Source: Rhodococcus sovatensis (GTDB lineage: Bacteria; Actinomycetota; Actinomycetes; Mycobacteriales; Mycobacteriaceae). Taken from it: a stretch of 64,000 bases of DNA. Each line of letters opens with the position of its first letter. Position 1 is the first letter of the stretch. The notes under the pieces were generated by a model. The model was not told where the DNA came from and made no database searches. It saw nothing but the letters and a program-made list of their open reading frames with translations. The stretch spans positions 2,604,963-2,668,962 of the forward strand of contig NZ_CP147846.1 of NCBI RefSeq assembly GCF_037327425.1, in the 5' to 3' direction. A program made the translations under genes and the position numbers. Below, in pieces: positions 1,797 to 53,994 of the stretch.

Positions 1797-2447
1797 ATGT
1801 CGTATCTGCTCCGAGTACAGCTCCCCGATCGTCCTGGCTCCCTCGGGTCACTTGCCGTTGCTCTCGGTTCGGTCGGCGCCGACATCTTGTCGCTGGACGT
1901 TATCGAGCGCGGCGACGGCTACGCGGTGGACGACCTGGTCGTCGACGTCGCGCCGGGCGCGCTGCCCGATACCCTCATCACTGCCGCGGAGAATCTGCAC
2001 GACGTTCGAGTCGACTCCATTCGGCCCTACACCGGCGTCCTCGACACTCATCGCGAACTCGAACTGATCGACCGTGTTGCGGCTGCGTCGGACGACCGCC
2101 TGCAGGTTCTCGTCGACGGTGCCCCGCGGGTACTCAGGGTTGGGTGGTCGGTGGTGGTTGCGACCGGCCGTCGCGGTGCGTACCGAGTTGTCGGCAGCTC
2201 TGGCGCACCTGAGACACACGCGACGAACATGCCGTGGATGCCCCTCGCACACCCGTCGGCACTCGACGGCGAAGCCGACTGGGTTCCGCAGGTATGGCGC
2301 GACATGGATACGAAGATCGCGGCCGCTCCGCTTGGGTCCACCGGCACTGTGCTGATGCTCGGACGCCCTGGCGGGCCGGATTTCCGGCCATCCGAGGTGG
2401 CACGACTCGGTTACCTCGCCGGAATCGTCGCCACCGTCCTCGGCTGA
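1797..2447 (+). CDS. ACT-domain protein (Rv3013-like)
   Basis: ATG at 1797 with RBS aaaggga; the product begins [24 protein letters not shown], an ACT fold. It is divergently placed between gatC and ligA, as in Mtb. Confidence 0.7.
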
Positions 2448-2448
2448 T

Positions 2449-4677
<2,229 letters not shown>

Positions 4678-8080: not shown

Positions 8081-8995
8081 TCAGCGAACTGGCGGTAGCC
8101 GAGACTCTCCGAGGACCCCCAGCTCGATGCCAGCGTGCACGTCTGGGTTGTGCTGCTCGCCGGATCGTGCCGCACTCTCGCATCGACGGGCCAGATCGCG
8201 ACGATCACTCCCCGGGGCTTCCGGCGCAACCAGCTCGACATGGGCGACGACACCCTTCAACCGGAAGATTCGGCCGATGGACTGCCCGATCGTCTCGTCG
8301 CCGACGAAGCAGGTCGCCGTGGTCTGTGCGTTGTCCGCGTCGACGTACCGCAGCCGAACCGGCTGCACCCATGTCTCGGTATCGACAGCTGCCTGGAACA
8401 TGGCCGGCCGGAACGATCCGTACGCCTTGCCACACCACGTGGTCGCCTCGGGGAACACCACTACGGTGCCGCCGGCGCGGAGTCGATCAGCCACCTGATC
8501 GACGGTGCCGGGAAGAGACCGAAGGTTCCTGCGATGGATCGGCAGGACTTTCATCGCCCGAGCGAGCACACCGAGTACCGGCCAGTCGACCAGATCACCT
8601 CGTGCGACGAATGTCGCAGGCCGAAGCGCCGTGAGCACGAGTACGTCCGTCCACGAAACGTGACCGGCTACCAGCAGCGCGCTCTCCTCGGTTCGTGAGC
8701 GTTCTCGCGCCGACCGAAGATCGTTCACGACCAGACCGATTCCCACTGCGAACAGCAAGAGACGTGCGCCGAATCTGGTGACCTGCCTGCGGCATCGCGA
8801 GGACACCACCCCCACCACGATCAAGATCGGGAGCAAAGCGAATGCAAGCATCGCGACCAGCGCACGGAGTACGACGAACATGCCGGCTACAGCCTCCGAT
8901 TCACGTGCAATACATCCTGTCCCACATGGGCTCGATGGCATCCATGCGTGATCGATGTCGGGTTCGACGATCTTTGCCGACGTGGACCCGTTCAT
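8081..8995 (-). CDS. 1-acyl-sn-glycerol-3-phosphate acyltransferase family protein (Rv3026c-like)
   Basis: Has a membrane anchor and the acyltransferase HxxxxD region (VAGHVSWTDVLVL). Start taken at the ATG at 8995, which overlaps the upstream stop (ATGA) and gives 304 aa; the longer ORF 8081..9367 is out-of-frame overlap. Confidence 0.65.
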   Translation of the reverse strand: MNGSTSAKIVEPDIDHAWMPSSPCGTGCIARESEAVAGMFVVLRALVAMLAFALLPILIVVGVVSSRCRRQVTRFGARLLLFAVGIGLVVNDLRSARERSRTEESALLVAGHVSWTDVLVLTALRPATFVARGDLVDWPVLGVLARAMKVLPIHRRNLRSLPGTVDQVADRLRAGGTVVVFPEATTWCGKAYGSFRPAMFQAAVDTETWVQPVRLRYVDADNAQTTATCFVGDETIGQSIGRIFRLKGVVAHVELVAPEAPGSDRRDLARRCESAARSGEQHNPDVHAGIELGVLGESRLPPVR

Positions 8996-9990
8996 GCGCC
9001 AACTTTCGTCTCGTACGTCAGGGCAGCACTTCGGAGCCGGTCGAGGTATCGGGTGTTGGCTTCGTGCAGACCGAGCAGTGCAACGAAGTCGGCGACGCCG
9101 AAGTCCGGGTCGTGTGCCGGTTCTCCGCAGATGACCGCGTTGAGGCGTAGGTAGCCTCGCAGCAGCGGCGGCATCGTCGGACGGGCCGGCGGCGCAAGGT
9201 CGTCGAGCGATCGCCCGTCGACTACGACCGGATTGTGCGGAACTGCGCGCTTGTCCTCGGCCGATCCGTGCTTCGCGAGGAGGAAGTCTCGGACGCCACG
9301 GACGTTCGCGCCCGGCAATTCTGCAGGGGTTGCCTGCATCGGGACCGAGACGCAGCCCATGACCCATTCAAGGCCGGTGACTTCGAGGTAGTGCAGGATC
9401 CCTGCCCACATAAGACCGAGGACAGATCCCGATCGATGGTCGGGATGCACGACCGCTCGTCCCATCTCGACGACGCGAGAGGACGCGGGGTCGAGGGCGG
9501 AGAGGTCGAATTCCGTTGCTGTGTAGTAGCCCCCGGCGGCGATGGCGGCGTCGGGCGGAAGCATCCGATAGCACCCGACGAAGTCGTCGGTTTCGTTGTC
9601 GCGGACGAGGAGGTGGTCGCAGAAGTAGTCGAAGCGATCGGAGTCGCGACCGTCGGCGGCGCTGGGCAGTGCGAATCCGGGCTCGGAGGAGAACACGTCG
9701 AATCGAAGTCGCTGCGCGGCCTCGCGGTGGGCGATGTCGGTGGACAGGACGAGTGAGTACCTGTCGGTGGCGGGAGCGGAGCCTGCGGAGTGACCCGGGA
9801 GGGCGGGAGCGGAGCCTGCGGAGTGACCCGGGAGGGCGGGAGCGGAGCCTGCGGAGTGACCCTGGAGGGCGGGAGCGGAGCCTGCGGAGTGACCCGGGAG
9901 GGCGGGAGCGGAGCCTGCGGAGTGACCCGGGAGGGCGGGAGCGGAGCCTGCGGTGCTTGCGGTATCAGCGGTCATGACTGAAGTGGTCAT
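8992..9990 (-). CDS. GNAT-family N-acetyltransferase with an N-terminal 11-aa tandem repeat (Rv3027c-like)
   Basis: 332 aa; the N-terminus carries six PALPGHSAGSA repeats encoded by a 33-bp tandem repeat; the C-terminal part resembles GNAT/FemAB-like acyltransferases. Confidence 0.6.
   Translation of the reverse strand: MTTSVMTADTASTAGSAPALPGHSAGSAPALPGHSAGSAPALQGHSAGSAPALPGHSAGSAPALPGHSAGSAPATDRYSLVLSTDIAHREAAQRLRFDVFSSEPGFALPSAADGRDSDRFDYFCDHLLVRDNETDDFVGCYRMLPPDAAIAAGGYYTATEFDLSALDPASSRVVEMGRAVVHPDHRSGSVLGLMWAGILHYLEVTGLEWVMGCVSVPMQATPAELPGANVRGVRDFLLAKHGSAEDKRAVPHNPVVVDGRSLDDLAPPARPTMPPLLRGYLRLNAVICGEPAHDPDFGVADFVALLGLHEANTRYLDRLRSAALTYETKVGA
9771..9987. repeat. 33-bp tandem repeat, about 6.5 copies, in-frame within the GNAT CDS
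   Basis: The unit ggagcggagcctgcggagtgacccgggagggcg repeats perfectly, with one copy carrying a g->t change. It is related (24/33 identity) to the repeat at 16553-16618. Confidence 0.95.
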
Positions 9991-10058
9991 GGTGCTGTGT
10001 CTAACGGTTCGGAGCGGCGCCAGCGCGTCGGGAGGGTAACGCGTCCGAAGCTGTTGTG

Positions 10059-10105
10059 TGAACGAAAAGCACGTAGCCCCCGCATCCAGTGGATGCGGGG
10101 GCTAC
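10059..10105 (-). terminator. Intrinsic terminator downstream of etfA
   Basis: Perfect 15-bp stem GTAGCCCCCGCATCC / GGATGCGGGGGCTAC, followed on the minus strand by CGTGCTTTTCGTTC. Confidence 0.6.
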
Positions 10106-10120
10106 GGGAAGTGCGAAAGA

Positions 10121-14524: not shown

Positions 14525-15772
14525 TTGAAGGTCTTGATGGTGTCGTGGGAATACCCACCGGTCGTGGTCGGCGGCCTCGGCCGGCATGTCCATCATCTTG
14601 CGACCGAATTGGTCCGGTCGGGCCACGAGGTCGTCGTGCTCGCGCGTCGTCCAACCGGGACCGATGCATCGACGCACCCGACCCATCACCGCATCGAGGA
14701 CGGTGTGCTGGTCGTCGCGGTTGCCGAGGACCCCGCTCACTTCGTCTTCGGCGAGGACATGCTGGCATGGACGCTGGCGATGGGGCACGCCATGGTGCGT
14801 GCAGGCATCGCGCTCGGCAAGCCCGGACTCGGTGAGGGATGGACGCCCGACGTCGTTCACGCACACGACTGGCTCGTCGCCCACCCCTCCATCGCGCTGG
14901 CGGAGCACTTCGACGTGCCGCTTGTGTCCACGATCCACGCGACCGAGGCAGGCAGGCACAGCGGCTGGATTTCCGGCCCCGTCAACCGGCAGGTGCACTC
15001 GATCGAGTGGTGGCTCGCCAACGATTCCGACGCTGTCATCACGTGCTCGGCATCCATGAAGGACGAAGTGACGCGACTGTTCGGCATCCGGGATTCGTCC
15101 GTCGCAGTGATCAGGAACGGAATCGATATCCGCACCTGGACTTTCCGACGTCGCGAGCCGCGACAGGAGCCGGCGAAGCTGCTGTACGTGGGGCGACTCG
15201 AATACGAGAAGGGCATTCAGGACGCAATAGCCGCGATGCCCCGCATTCGCCGCAGCCACCCTGGCACCACCCTGCACATCGCCGGTGAAGGCACCCAGTT
15301 CGGATGGCTGGCTCAATTGGCCCGGACACATCGCGTCGCACGGGCTGTCTCGTTCCTCGGCTCGCTGGATCACACCGAGCTACTCGGCTGGCTGCACGGC
15401 GCCGACGCGATCGTCCTGCCCAGTCGGTACGAGCCGTTCGGGATCATTGCTCTGGAAGCTGCGGCGGCCGGAACCCCGCTCGTGGCGTCGACCGCAGGTG
15501 GCCTCGGCGAGGCGATCGTCGACGGCGTCACCGGGTTGTCGTTCGAACCGGCCGACGTCGGTGGACTCGCGACCGCAGTCCGACGGGTGCTCGACAACGT
15601 GGATGCAGCTCAGGATCGGGCGGAGGCCGCCAGGAAGCGCCTCACCGTCGATTTCGATTGGAAGCATGTCGCCGACGCAACGGCGCAGGTGTACCTCGCG
15701 GCCAAGCGGAAAGTTCGATATCCGCTGGCCCGGCCCGTCATCGTCGAACGTGCTCTACCCGAAAGAAGCTGA
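14525..15772 (+). CDS. GT4 alpha-glucosyltransferase (Rv3032-like)
   Basis: Begins KVLMVSWEYPPVVVGGLGRHV; the C-terminal EPFGIIALEAAAAG is the GT4 motif. TTG start at 14525 right after the upstream stop; the ATG at 14537 is an alternative. Confidence 0.8.
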   Translation: MKVLMVSWEYPPVVVGGLGRHVHHLATELVRSGHEVVVLARRPTGTDASTHPTHHRIEDGVLVVAVAEDPAHFVFGEDMLAWTLAMGHAMVRAGIALGKPGLGEGWTPDVVHAHDWLVAHPSIALAEHFDVPLVSTIHATEAGRHSGWISGPVNRQVHSIEWWLANDSDAVITCSASMKDEVTRLFGIRDSSVAVIRNGIDIRTWTFRRREPRQEPAKLLYVGRLEYEKGIQDAIAAMPRIRRSHPGTTLHIAGEGTQFGWLAQLARTHRVARAVSFLGSLDHTELLGWLHGADAIVLPSRYEPFGIIALEAAAAGTPLVASTAGGLGEAIVDGVTGLSFEPADVGGLATAVRRVLDNVDAAQDRAEAARKRLTVDFDWKHVADATAQVYLAAKRKVRYPLARPVIVERALPERS

Positions 15773-16531
15773 GTCTCCCCTGGCTGTCTCGGCAGCCTTG
15801 AGTGCTTTCTTTCGCTCGATGTCTTCCAGCGCCGCGATGTATTCCGCTCGCTTCGCGGCCCCGGCTTCCCAGTCGGCCTTGCGATTGCGAACGACTTTCG
15901 CCGGAGCACCGACTGCGATGCTGTAGTCCGGAATCGTGCCTTTGACCACGGCGTGGGCACCCAGAACACAACCGCGCCCGACGCTTGTCTCGCGAAGGAC
16001 GGTGACCTTTGCCGCGATCCAGGTATCCGGACCGATCCGTACCGGCCCCTTGACGATTCCCTGGTCCTTGATGGGCGTCGTCACGTCGTCCATCCGATGG
16101 TCGAAGTCGCAGATGTAGCACCAGTCCGCGACGAGCGTGGATGCGCCAATCTCGATGTCGAGGTAGGTGTTGACGACGTTGTCCTTCCCGAACACCACCT
16201 TGTCGCCGATGCGCAGCGAGCCTTCGTGGCAGCGGATCGCGTTCCCGTCACCGATATGAACCCAACGGCCGATCTCCAACCTCGACAGCTCCGGCGTCGA
16301 ATGAATCTCGACGTTCTTCCCCAGGAACACCATTCCGCGAAGAATGACGTGAGGGTTCGCTGCCTTGAACCGGGCGAGACGGTAGTACCGGACCAAATAC
16401 CACGGGGTGTACGCCTTGTTGTGCAGGACCCAGCGCAGTGAGTCGAGTGTGAGGAAGCGCGCCTGATCTTCGTCGCGTCGCCTGGATCCGCGCCACCGTG
16501 AACGCAGCGGTGCGTTCCACATGCTCGTCAT
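15755..16531 (-). CDS. Hexapeptide-repeat acetyltransferase (Rv3034c-like)
   Basis: Left-handed beta-helix hexapeptide repeats (IGDGNAIRCHEGSLRIGDKVVFG...). Start set at MTSMWNAPL; the upstream in-frame extension is a translation of the 33-bp repeat. Confidence 0.7.
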   Translation of the reverse strand: MTSMWNAPLRSRWRGSRRRDEDQARFLTLDSLRWVLHNKAYTPWYLVRYYRLARFKAANPHVILRGMVFLGKNVEIHSTPELSRLEIGRWVHIGDGNAIRCHEGSLRIGDKVVFGKDNVVNTYLDIEIGASTLVADWCYICDFDHRMDDVTTPIKDQGIVKGPVRIGPDTWIAAKVTVLRETSVGRGCVLGAHAVVKGTIPDYSIAVGAPAKVVRNRKADWEAGAAKRAEYIAALEDIERKKALKAAETARGDSASFG

Positions 16532-16552: not shown

Positions 16553-16618
16553 AGGAGTGGAGCCTGCGGAACGACCCACGCAGCCGGGAGTGGAGCCTGC
16601 GGAACGACCCACGCAGCC
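16553..16618. repeat. 33-bp tandem repeat, 2 perfect copies, intergenic
   Basis: The unit is ggagtggagcctgcggaacgacccacgcagccg, repeated twice. It shares the core GGAGCCTGCGGA...GACCC with the repeat at 9771-9987. Confidence 0.9.
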
Positions 16619-16704
16619 GGGGAGCCGCTTTCCTGATAGGCGCGGTCGCCGGGATAGTCTTTGTGCTTGACACGTGGGGATCGAGGACGAGGGAGTTACA
16701 CAAG

Positions 16705-31371: not shown

Positions 31372-31560
31372 CCCATTTCGGTGACCGACTGTCTACTTCG
31401 GTCACCTGGCGGGACCGAATGTCTACTTCAGTCACTCTGAGTGCGCGAATGTCTGTTTCGGTCACCTGGCGGGACCGAATGTCTACTTCAGTCACTCTGA
31501 GTGCGCGAATGTCTGTTTCGGTCACCTGTGGGCCAGCGAACGACTCATTCGGTCACCCAG
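31372..31560. repeat. Phased direct-repeat array: three 60-bp units, equal to six ~30-bp sub-repeats
   Basis: The 60-mers at 31381-31440, 31441-31500 and 31501-31560 are near-identical; copy 2 is identical to copy 1 from position 31390, and the third copy degenerates in its second half. The core GAATGTCT-NN-TTC-N-GTCAC recurs at 31386, 31416, 31447, 31476, 31507 and 31538. Confidence 0.95.
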
Positions 31561-31613: not shown

Positions 31614-32387
31614 ATGTCCGCACCCGCAACCGTCGCCGAGAAGCCAACGGGTACCCCAACCATCACAATCGCCGAACGGCCCGGGTGGGATCTGCCCGGA
31701 TGGTCGATGCTCGGCGCAGGCCTCGTGCTGTTCCTCGGAGGTATCGCCGCATTCGTGGTCGGCCTGATTTTCACCATTGTCGTCGCGATGGTCGTCGGCG
31801 TCGTGCTGTTCGTCGCGTCGCTTCCAGTCCTGGCCGGCCTGACGCTCGTGCAGCCGAATCAGGCTCGCGTGCTTCAACTTCTAGGGAGTTCGTACAGTGG
31901 CACCCTCCGCACACCCGGATTGCGGTGGACGAATCCGCTGACGTACCGCAAGGCGATCTCGACCCGGATCCGCAATCACGAGACCGCCCAGTCCACCGGC
32001 AGCTACCCCTACGATGCAGAGGATCGAATGTCGTTGCGCGAGAACGCCGACGAGATCACCGGGGCAATGTCCGAGGAGGTGCACGCCAGGGTTCGCGCCG
32101 CAGGTGTCGAGGTGATCGAGACCAGAATCAACCGTCTCGCGTACGCACCCGAGATCGCCCAGGCCATGCTGCGTCGTCAGCAGGCGGGCGCGGTCATTGC
32201 CGCTCGTCGACAGATCGTCGAGGGCGCCGTCGGCATGGTGGATATGGCCCTGGCGAAGCTGGAAGAGAAGCACGTCGTCGAACTCGACGAAGAACGCAAG
32301 GCCACGATGGTCTCGAACCTACTCGTCGTGCTGTGTAGCGACCGCGACACACAGCCCGTGGTGAATGCCGGATCGCTGTACCAGTGA
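31614..32387 (+). CDS. SPFH/band-7 (stomatin-prohibitin-like) membrane protein
   Basis: ATG at 31614 with SD GAGGGAGG. Two N-terminal transmembrane helices followed by an SPFH core ([30 protein letters not shown]) and coiled coil. Confidence 0.7.
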
Positions 32388-49550: not shown

Positions 49551-49623
49551 TGGAGCTAAGGGGACTCGAACCCCTGACCCCCACACTGCCAGTGTGGTGC
49601 GCTACCAGCTGCGCCATAGCCCC
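49551..49623 (-). tRNA. tRNA-Ala (anticodon GGC)
   Basis: Cloverleaf GGGGCTA-TG-GCGC-AGCTGGTA-GCGC-A-CCACA-CTGGCAG-TGTGG-GGGTC-AGGGG-TTCGAGT-CCCCT-TAGCTCC-A. G3:U70 Ala identity pair. CCA is not encoded. Confidence 0.9.
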
Positions 49624-53539: not shown

Positions 53540-53544
53540 TTTCG

Positions 53545-53912
53545 GTGGAGCTGCCGGGAATCGAACCCGGGTCCTCCGCTGTATCACCAGGGCTTCTCCG
53601 TGTGCAGTCTGCTATGCCTCTACTTGGATCTCCTGATCTCGCAGACAAGCCAGGATGACGATCCCAGCCACTGTTTGATGTTCCTCATCACTCCGTGGCC
53701 GAGTGAATCGGTAAGCCCTCTAGCTGATGCCAGTACCCGGACCGAGGGCGAGCCCGGACTGACAGACACGCAGTCGCTACTTAGGCAGCGAGTGCGTAGT
53801 CGCGCTGATTGGAATCGGCGCTTATATGTTTGCGATGACGCTTACGGTGGTCTCTCGCCTGCACCGACACGCTTCCCCTGACTCAACATACAGAGTCGAA
53901 ACCGTTCAGCCC
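53545..53912 (-). ncRNA. ssrA: tmRNA (ssrA)
   Basis: 5' GGGGCTGAACGGTTTCGAC...; tag reading frame GCC GAT TCC AAT CAG CGC GAC TAC GCA CTC GCT GCC TAA = ADSNQRDYALAA*; 3' tRNA-like end GGGTTCGATTCCCGGCAGCTCCACC. Confidence 0.9.
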
Positions 53913-53994
53913 CGTATGTTCCCCAGCACTTTGCCGGGGCTTGTAAGTGTAACGCGTCCACCGAGCAGAATCATCCCGTTATTCGGCGCGTGTT

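Follow-up and report, generated by a model that had tools for sequence, protein, structure and literature searches.

An in-frame tandem repeat in an OlsB-like gene of Rhodococcus sovatensis and the Nocardiaceae interspersed repeat family to which it belongs

Overview

A tandem repeat with a 33-bp unit, which we call array 1, occupies the 5′ part of a gene for an OlsB-like GNAT N-acyltransferase in Rhodococcus sovatensis, within the 64,000-nucleotide stretch of contig NZ_CP147846.1 that was analysed here (the window). We believe that array 1 is an in-frame variable-number tandem repeat (VNTR) in the disordered tail of the OlsB-like protein, and that it is one locus of a short interspersed repeat that has been proliferating among the Nocardiaceae, a combined reading to which we assign a probability of about 0.6. 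The parts of this reading can be graded separately. It is well supported that the repeat is a genuine VNTR, read in frame within a disordered N-terminal tail, and it is likewise well supported that this VNTR belongs to a large, Nocardiaceae-specific family of interspersed repeats. Good support also exists for the view that the family bears the marks of proliferation, namely insertion sites that are unrelated to each other, subfamilies that are structured by taxon and copies that remain intact, and for the action of a selection filter on its members, as seen in their bias of reading frame and in their location in protein tails and intergenic DNA. The single locus is moderately interesting. The family is more so, for the unusual way in which core and spacer are combined, for its presence in the opening codons of housekeeping genes and for a conservation that lacks an explanation.

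Array 1 and its translation

Array 1 consists of five complete copies of a 23-nt core (plus-strand starts at 9773, 9806, 9839, 9872 and 9905) and one 5′-truncated core of 16 nt (9938-9953) that precedes the complete units. On the minus strand, each of the five units reads GGTCACTCCGCAGGCTCCGCTCC followed by the spacer cgccctcccg, except that one spacer is cgccctccag, a C-to-A change that turns ALPGHS into ALQGHS. The encoded peptide is thus a series of SAPALPGHSAG repeats, or (S)APALPGHSAG five times, with the substitution to Q in one unit. Head-to-tail units of 10-100 bp with high identity are the hallmark of a minisatellite, and this is the form that array 1 takes (Table 1). A 9-bp micro-repeat at its 5′ edge encodes T-x-S/G and also varies in its number of copies, with TASTAG in the window versus TSSTLSTAGTAG in L001 (about 10020-10060), a relative with 96.7% identity.

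A preliminary description of this DNA, made from the sequence alone, had recognised a near-perfect head-to-tail 33-bp repeat that is read in frame as 11 codons at the N-terminus of the protein, and all of this holds. Some of its details do not. The copy number was put at about 6.5, which is too high, and the proposed span of 9771-9987 captures the array but overshoots its end by 34 bp, into N-terminal codons that are not part of the repeat. All six reading frames were said to remain open, whereas only five do, since one forward frame carries a TGA in every unit. The two artefact open reading frames (ORFs) that it named, 9516..9977 and 9790..9981, are both present on the plus strand.

The array begins 37 nt past the host ATG, and the host ORF, which specifies a protein identical to WP_338892897.1 of R. 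sovatensis, stays open through all of its 11-codon units. The only in-frame starts are the ATG codons at 9990 and 9975, both of which precede array 1, and no in-frame ATG, GTG or TTG exists between these codons and the conserved domain. Homologues that are free of the repeat start with the motif MTTSVM/MTSR, and the same motif is found upstream of array 1 in the host gene. Given this conserved motif upstream, and with no start available past the array, a functional enzyme can arise only if the repeat is translated. We therefore infer translation of array 1 from its frame and from the positions of the start codons.

The GNAT domain is coded downstream of the array. In an AlphaFold model made from a 29-sequence alignment, residues 1-73 lack secondary structure and have a pLDDT below 50 (residues 1-31 and 33-73), whereas the folded domain at residues 81-320 mostly scores 80-98 and the confident fold spans residues 77-332. 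Thus, the repeats are predicted to form a disordered N-terminal tail.

Copy-number variation among relatives

The number of units at this locus differs among close relatives. Members of the 90%-identity cluster of the window protein carry about 1.5, 2.5, 3.5 or 5.5 units, with the spacer-encoded variants ALP, ALL, ALT, ALE and ALQ, and L001, a relative from a metagenome whose DNA is 96.7% identical across 20 kb, has about 2.5. A sister cluster of OlsB-like proteins has 1, 2 or 4 units of GRSAGSPPADT, a second sister cluster has 0, 1 or 2, and a fourth cluster has 0.6 or 1.6. All length differences among these OlsB-like proteins amount to whole 11-residue units, and the locus therefore behaves as an in-frame VNTR, as had been anticipated from the proposal that copy-number change would alter protein length without a frameshift. 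Most of the more distant OlsB homologues carry no repeat. One homologue of 287 amino acids (P0014) has a separate insertion, in which SVPLQ is present three times as units of about 15 bp that are unrelated to the 33-bp family, and this insertion is placed within the folded part of the protein, in a loop after the CVSVPMQ motif.

A dispersed family built on a 23-nt core

A second array of the same kind, array 2, is found in the window some distance from the first. It contains two complete cores (16554-16576 and 16587-16609) that are separated by the spacer cggctgcgtg, with a degenerate partial unit upstream of them. By our own count, its units agree with those of array 1 at 25 of 33 positions. 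A unit with 24/33 identity had been placed at 16553-16618, and so the existence of the second array stands while its limits and identity have been revised. The core pattern GGAGCCTGCGGA-NN-GACCC has seven matches in the window versus 0.03 expected by chance. This form, with a gap of two, replaces an earlier version of the pattern in which the gap had been given as N7.

The genome-wide search that had been proposed was run with the pattern GGAG-N-GGAGCCTGCGGA-NN-GACC over one genome per species from 185,579 species. It yielded at least 120 stretches with the core, nearly all of them from the Nocardiaceae, and the counts and distributions that follow refer to the stretches listed from this search. 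Most are from the Rhodococcus fascians clade (Rhodococcoides), in which a single genome can carry at least 7-8 loci. The remainder come from other Rhodococcus species, Nocardia, Aldersonia, Smaragdicoccus, Antrihabitans and a metagenome-assembled genome (MAG) labelled Mycobacterium sp. Two of the matches, in a Haloparvum and in an Acidimicrobiales MAG, are likely due to chance, and a tRNA-like context of the core was set aside as part of the archaeal (Haloparvum) chance match. A phage origin was rejected on the basis of zero core matches in the viral collection, as was a plasmid origin, given that 72,556 PLSDB plasmids contain a single solo core (on one R. ruber plasmid).

These data bear directly on the simplest alternative, which is that array 1 arose by a one-off local duplication that became fixed as a low-complexity linker, and that its likeness to array 2 is coincidental. 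Only two loci are visible within the window, as this view would have it, but no support for it remains after testing. The excess of core matches in the window, the recurrence of the core in at least 120 stretches and the variation of copy number in close relatives have already refuted it, and we give it almost no weight. The preliminary description had likewise dismissed a one-off duplication, in favour of a small dispersed tandem-repeat family. The family is indeed dispersed, with the same sequence at many unrelated loci and far above chance, but it is not small. It had also been proposed that the 33-bp unit itself recurs. Recurrence is borne out, although the conserved dispersed module proves to be the 23-nt core, with spacers that vary.

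With up to three mismatches allowed, the listed stretches contain 142 elements. Solo cores account for 76 of these, and arrays of 2-7 units for the remainder. An alignment of the solo copies gives the core as GGTC-R-Y-TCCGCAGGCTCC-R-CTCC, with an information content of about 2 bits at 20 positions that falls to zero within 1-4 nt on either side. Outside the core, conservation is limited to a weak YC(G/T) ahead of it and a weak YGCC behind it. Within the 934 kb of DNA that was fetched, 206 cores are exact, 45 have one mismatch, 11 have two and three have three, after which the counts reach background. Truncated cores are rare and are mostly found at the 5′ edges of arrays, as in array 1. The spacers measure 7-13 nt and are mostly identical within an array, and those of 33-bp arrays, at about 10 nt, begin with YG and contain much C but little G when read on the sense strand. 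Flanks of family loci are mutually unrelated, because all-against-all BLAST comparisons matched only orthologous loci, and this result rules out a larger mobile element that carries the core as its cargo.

Array periods range from 27 to 46 bp. The mode is 33 bp (82 of 138 intervals), and periods of 30, 31, 32, 34, 35 and 36 bp also occur. Since 33 bp is also the mode where neither flank looks coding (27 of 42 intervals), the period is not a coding constraint but is intrinsic to the repeat. In one unusual case, an array of six units with a 32-bp period in Rhodococcus tukisamuensis (L100, about 1800-1990, plus strand) has coding signal on both sides in one continuous frame, and if this is real, then the array would be read successively in each of the three frames of the unit.

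The variable positions 6 and 19 of the core are linked. The combination T..A is present in 84 arrays and C..G in 51, while neither T..G nor C..A was ever seen in the scored (last) unit of any listed array, and a third subtype, T..C, was seen only at OlsB orthologues. Position 5 (G or A) varies independently of the other two. Base-pair covariation was considered as the cause of this linkage and ruled out, since no helix fits and the distribution among taxa shows subfamily descent. C..G is the sole subtype found in Nocardia, Aldersonia, Smaragdicoccus and Antrihabitans, whereas T..A is nearly confined to the R. fascians clade (82 T..A versus 24 C..G), with two more examples in other Rhodococcus species. 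Subtypes that track taxonomy in this manner are the pattern expected of subfamilies derived from master copies. The two arrays in the window differ in this respect, with array 1 belonging to the C..G subtype and array 2 to the T..A subtype.

Genomic context and reading frame

Elements were classified as coding or non-coding by a heuristic that uses GC content at third codon positions (GC3) and open frames. By this measure, coding signal is absent from both sides of about 40 of the 130 elements that were classified. The majority of elements are located in intergenic DNA or at the ends of genes. The elements that lie in or beside coding DNA in the sense direction strongly favour one frame, with 39 in frame +0, 11 in frame +1 and five in frame +2 (chi-square p = 1.6e-8). 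The favoured frame reads GGT CRY TCC GCA GGC TCC RCT CC, which encodes G-R/H-S-A-G-S-T/A-P, and it has the poorest GC3 of the three.

Many elements are found at the very beginnings of genes. In 23 of them, a non-coding upstream flank is combined with a first core that is located 1-31 codons past the nearest in-frame start, and several of these have a plain Shine-Dalgarno sequence and ATG just upstream. Hosts with a core near the N-terminus include OlsB, PurE (...AVGLIMGSDSDW) and a NuoD-like protein. The purE gene offers no start codon between the core and the onset of conserved structure, and since neither PurE nor OlsB has a later start available, the core copies in these genes are coding. 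In Rhodococcus, Aldersonia and Nocardia nova (L035, L081 and L118), the core of PurE is found at one position, before AVG(L/V)IMGSDSDW. The subtype there is T..A in Rhodococcus versus C..G in Nocardia and Aldersonia, with copy numbers of 2, 1 and 1. Sense elements number 28 at the 5′ ends of genes versus 10 at the 3′ ends, whereas antisense elements show no such bias (10 versus 11).

Other elements are located inside genes, at 3′ ends or between convergent genes, and in both orientations. Eight of 131 elements, versus one of 131 control positions, have inverted repeats of 9 nt or more on their two sides. Most of these elements occupy the loop of a palindromic repeat of another kind, CATGTGAGTGGAAAT...ATTTCCACTCACATG. 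Solo cores within this loop were seen in L011, L051, L072, L090 and L116.

The strong preference for one frame, together with the fact that the same proteins are hit across genera (PurE in the three genera just named and OlsB in four species clusters), could be taken to mean that selection acts on the protein. The peptide units would then serve as an N-terminal module, for example as a spacer, a stability tag or a site of modification, with a copy number tuned for each protein. We find this explanation quite improbable, in view of the many elements that lack coding signal, the others that are antisense or in other frames, and the common periods of 31, 32, 34 and 35 bp. Moreover, conservation is evident at the level of nucleotides, including synonymous sites, the OlsB-like tail is predicted to be unstructured, and most OlsB homologues do without the repeat.

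Conservation at orthologous sites

Loci for OlsB from species that share no more than about 78% identity with the window in their flanking DNA keep all 20 fixed positions of the core, for which the chance at this level of identity is 0.78^20, or about 0.007 per core. Spacers and the remaining OlsB tail diverge freely between the same species. At this one orthologous site, three core subtypes are found across four species clusters (C..G, T..C and probably T..A). Within some arrays of the family (L018, L104, L075, L093, L086 and L003), different 10-nt spacers separate identical cores. The conservation of the core and the mixture of subtypes and spacers argue against simple vertical inheritance with drift. 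They point to repeated insertion, to conversion by copies from elsewhere, or else to a constraint that acts at the nucleotide level.

A comparison of filled and empty sites is possible for OlsB. The zero-copy allele (L126) reads GCC CCG CCT GCA ACC GAT, whereas filled alleles read ...CCG CCT GCC ACC, then the unit TCT GGTCGTTCCGCAGGCTCC CCTCCTGCCACC, and then GAT, such that the last 12 nt of the unit nearly repeat the 12 nt ahead of it. This near-duplication explains the odd C at core position 19 in OlsB. The pair is compatible with gain or loss by slippage, or with copying that was primed on microhomology to the 3′ end of the core. The same comparison could not be made for array 2, as the intergenic region is too diverged in relatives with 78% identity to place an insertion point. 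At the site in L002 that is orthologous to array 2 (3290-3330), there is no core but instead a 16-17-bp duplication, in which GGCAGTCCGGTCGAGA is present twice.

A constraint at the nucleotide level would be expected if the core were a functional cis-element, bound by a DNA- or RNA-binding factor that is conserved in the Nocardiaceae. Arrays at the 5′ ends of genes would then tune the gene downstream, and coding copies would be sites that happen to be tolerated within N-terminal codons. Near-absolute conservation of 20 positions across genera, which extends to synonymous positions and to the non-preferred codons GGT, GCA and ACT, is what such a site should exhibit, as is the retention of orthologous cores while flanks and spacers diverge. 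The enrichment of sense elements just downstream of start codons, and a period of about 33 bp that is constant even in non-coding DNA, speak for it as well. However, the elements are found in every context and in both orientations, including the loops of another palindromic repeat, and 20 invariant positions within an asymmetric 23 nt are far more specific than typical regulator sites. The known host genes (OlsB, PurE and NuoD-like) are functionally unrelated, and the taxon-linked T..A and C..G subtypes resemble descent from master copies rather than selection of a site.

Searches for a regulatory signature also gave little encouragement to this idea. A sigma-70 promoter scan near array 1 had no match, and an ECF-type promoter (GGAAC, antisense strand) was dropped after inspection revealed no matching -10 element at the right spacing. 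A scan of the whole window with Rfam gathering thresholds found no match at either array, its only hits being a tmRNA and one tRNA. Folding of the core and of both arrays as RNA and DNA, on both strands, gave nothing better than shuffled sequences. The best stem of the core is 5 bp (GCAGG/CCUGC), with z-scores of -0.2 to -1.2 relative to shuffles. Taken together, these observations lead us to consider a cis-element rather doubtful.

How the family might spread

In the proliferating-repeat reading that we prefer, the unit of spread would be a module of about 30-33 nt that comprises the almost invariant 23-nt core, the weak YGCC and about 10 nt of C-rich spacer. The core would reach new sites in unrelated flanks and seed minisatellites there. 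Once established at a site, the module changes in copy number one unit at a time, presumably by replication slippage or by unequal recombination between identical 23-nt cores. Its distribution in genomes would then be what selection leaves after insertion into many kinds of sites, with copies surviving only where the encoded peptide is harmless, as may be true of the small and flexible G-R/H-S-A-G-S-T/A-P. The OlsB-like tail would grow by 11 residues per unit with little or no effect on the enzyme, and such changes should be nearly neutral. The filled and empty OlsB alleles suggest spread by microhomology-primed copying, although the sharp ends of the core argue rather for a dedicated enzyme or for an intermediate of defined form.

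Several points weigh against this reading. We found no enzyme that would mobilise the core, no rule of target-site duplication and no donor locus. The identity of the core across genera is poorly explained by passive copying alone, and sequence-specific recognition by a conserved factor fits better. Likewise, simple duplication followed by drift does not predict that identical cores should be separated by differing 10-nt spacers, as they are in some arrays. The excess of sense elements at 5′ ends could reflect function or targeting instead of tolerance. Furthermore, the coding calls on which the frame and position counts are based come from a heuristic, and some orthologous loci were counted more than once. 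Several of the sequences used to assess copy number are short-read assemblies or MAGs, which may collapse a 185-bp array.

In a further reading, the module of about 33 nt would be an actively mobile, coding-compatible mini-element of an undescribed kind, with neither terminal inverted repeats nor a hairpin, that is inserted by dedicated machinery conserved in the Nocardiaceae. This machinery could be an integrase, or it could rely on templated synthesis through a small intermediate made of DNA or RNA. Insertion would be preferred at the 5′ ends of genes or in hairpin loops, and would add N-terminal cassettes of 11 residues to housekeeping proteins. Such a mechanism would fit the sharp ends of the core and the 33-bp period that is also seen in non-coding DNA, as well as the arrays whose identical cores have different 10-nt spacers between them, and the different subtypes at a single orthologous site. 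We consider it unlikely on the present evidence, yet slightly less so than a cis-element. If such machinery exists, it could be of interest as a means to insert short cassettes.

Comparison with known repeat families

The family can be described as a bacterial short interspersed repeat or minisatellite that is apparently undescribed, and that falls outside every named family with which we compared it. A search of the literature for the core, for its peptides and for Rhodococcus repeats returned coincidental primer matches and unrelated papers, but no description of the family in the library that was searched.

The closest parallel in behaviour is provided by the mycobacterial interspersed repetitive units (MIRU) that are used for VNTR typing, which are likewise interspersed, form head-to-tail arrays and vary in copy number among strains of a related suborder. 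Both are compatible with ORFs, are co-oriented with neighbouring genes and lack a transposase of their own. MIRU in Mycobacterium are 40-100 bp elements with internal inverted repeats that are intergenic in operons, and their ends overlap the start and stop codons of the neighbouring genes (Supply et al. 1997, as summarised in PMC3184786). In contrast, the Nocardiaceae module measures about 33 bp, has a non-palindromic 23-nt invariant core with variable spacers, and has many copies within N-terminal codons. Neither array in the window occupies the position of a MIRU, because array 1 is inside a coding region and array 2 is between divergent genes. The distinction from MIRU is based on their described unit size and position.

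In-frame fusion of repeats to genes is known from the Rickettsia palindromic elements (Ogata et al. 2000, reviewed in PMC3184786). As with the Nocardiaceae core, these are dispersed repeats of non-coding origin that are read in frame, contribute a tolerated peptide and are present in unrelated housekeeping genes. However, the Nocardiaceae element is 23-33 nt, non-palindromic and arranged in tandem arrays, and it favours the extreme N-terminus. Rickettsia palindromic elements are 100-150 bp and palindromic, and are inserted as single copies.

Repetitive extragenic palindromes and the mosaic elements built from them (REP/BIME) are short (20-40 nt), abundant, interspersed, often clustered and specific to a genus or family, all of which is true of the core as well. 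REPs are imperfect palindromes that are extragenic and are mobilised by RAYT transposases, whereas the Nocardiaceae core has no stable stem-loop (only the weak 5-bp hairpin noted above) and is frequent in coding DNA. The MPTR and PGRS repeats, found in mycobacterial PE/PPE genes, are likewise GC-rich and coding, combine a conserved core with short variable spacers, and are polymorphic among strains. These repeats are restricted to a single gene superfamily, where they code for the main part of the protein, whereas copies of the Nocardiaceae core are spread across intergenic DNA and genes of unrelated kinds.

Regularly spaced identical repeats also invite comparison with CRISPR arrays, particularly as a few Nocardiaceae arrays have non-identical spacers of constant length. 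CRISPR loci have repeats of 23-47 nt and unique spacers of similar or greater length, whereas the spacers here measure 7-13 nt and are usually identical within an array, and arrays are placed inside genes. No CRISPR direct-repeat family of Rfam matches the window, and the viral collection contains no match to the core. Finally, the core lacks the terminal inverted repeats of a miniature inverted-repeat transposable element, and solo cores have no consistent flanking direct repeat.

We therefore regard the family as a Nocardiaceae interspersed repeat that is comparable to MIRU, but has an unusual core-plus-spacer design and frequently resides in frame in the first codons of housekeeping genes. 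It offers a tractable case for examining how sequences this short can spread when they bear none of the features by which a transposon is recognised, and how selection filters insertions by reading frame. On a practical level, the OlsB-like locus is a ready VNTR marker for typing strains of R. sovatensis and of the R. fascians group. It also carries a warning for annotation, given the two opposite-strand artefact ORFs that array 1 creates and the differences in N-terminal length between orthologues.

Host gene, neighbourhood and other features of the window

The host protein has been called OlsB-like throughout, because NCBIfam models for OlsB (ornithine N-acyltransferase) match residues 76-319 with 123 and 116 bits, versus equivalog cut-offs of 320 and 350. 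A function in the synthesis of ornithine lipids is thus only predicted. Earlier identification of the gene as an Rv3027c-like GNAT gene on the minus strand, with the repeat in its 5′ part, is in agreement with the PF13444 match and with the neighbouring genes (Table 1). The etfB and etfA genes lie upstream, and the resulting order etfBA-OlsB-like-OlsA-like is one that we take to match the arrangement Rv3029c-Rv3026c. The OlsB-like stop codon overlaps the ATG of the OlsA-like gene as ATGA (8992-8995), which suggests that the two genes are translationally coupled. A listed ORF of 428 amino acids (8081..9367) is an over-extension of the OlsA-like gene.

Given the strong hairpin that follows etfA, the OlsB-like gene is probably transcribed separately, from a start within about 80 nt upstream of array 1. 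Array 2 is located in a divergent intergenic region, between a gene for a hexapeptide-repeat transferase and one for a PQQ-like lipoprotein, and it stops 23 bp upstream of the transferase ATG (16531).

Table 1. Positions of the two arrays, their host and neighbouring genes, and other features within the window
Feature	Position	Strand	Basis or remark
Array 1	9769-9953	minus	Tandem Repeats Finder (TRF): period 33, 5.6 copies, 98% matches, no indels
9-bp micro-repeat, ACCGCAGGC-like, 2.6 copies	9941-9963	minus	TRF; 5′ edge of array 1
Array 2	16554-16621	minus	TRF: period 33, 2.1 copies, 100% identical
OlsB-like GNAT N-acyltransferase, 332 codons	8992..9990	minus	ORF list
Acetyltransf_5 (GNAT) domain, residues 95-196	9403..9708	minus	PF13444, 113.5 bits versus gathering cut-off 22.4
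OlsA-like acyltransferase (PF01553)	8081..8995	minus	Pfam/NCBIfam; gene calls in syntenic loci
Terminator-like hairpin, 16-bp stem and T-run	10072..10106	minus	After etfA
Hexapeptide-repeat transferase	15755..16531	minus	Directly downstream of array 2, in the orientation of the core; 258-aa gene calls in L001-L003
tRNA gene	49551-49623	minus	Rfam scan
tmRNA gene	53543-53913	minus	Rfam scan, 148.6 bits
30/60-bp tandem repeat	31383-31528		4.9 and 2.4 copies

One other tandem repeat in the window has a rather different appearance. The 30/60-bp repeat listed last in Table 1 is built from palindrome-like GACCGAA...TTCGGTC motifs. About 85 bp separate its end from a downstream plus-strand ORF that starts at 31614 and has a strong ribosome binding site. 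The repeat looks like an array of operator-type sites.

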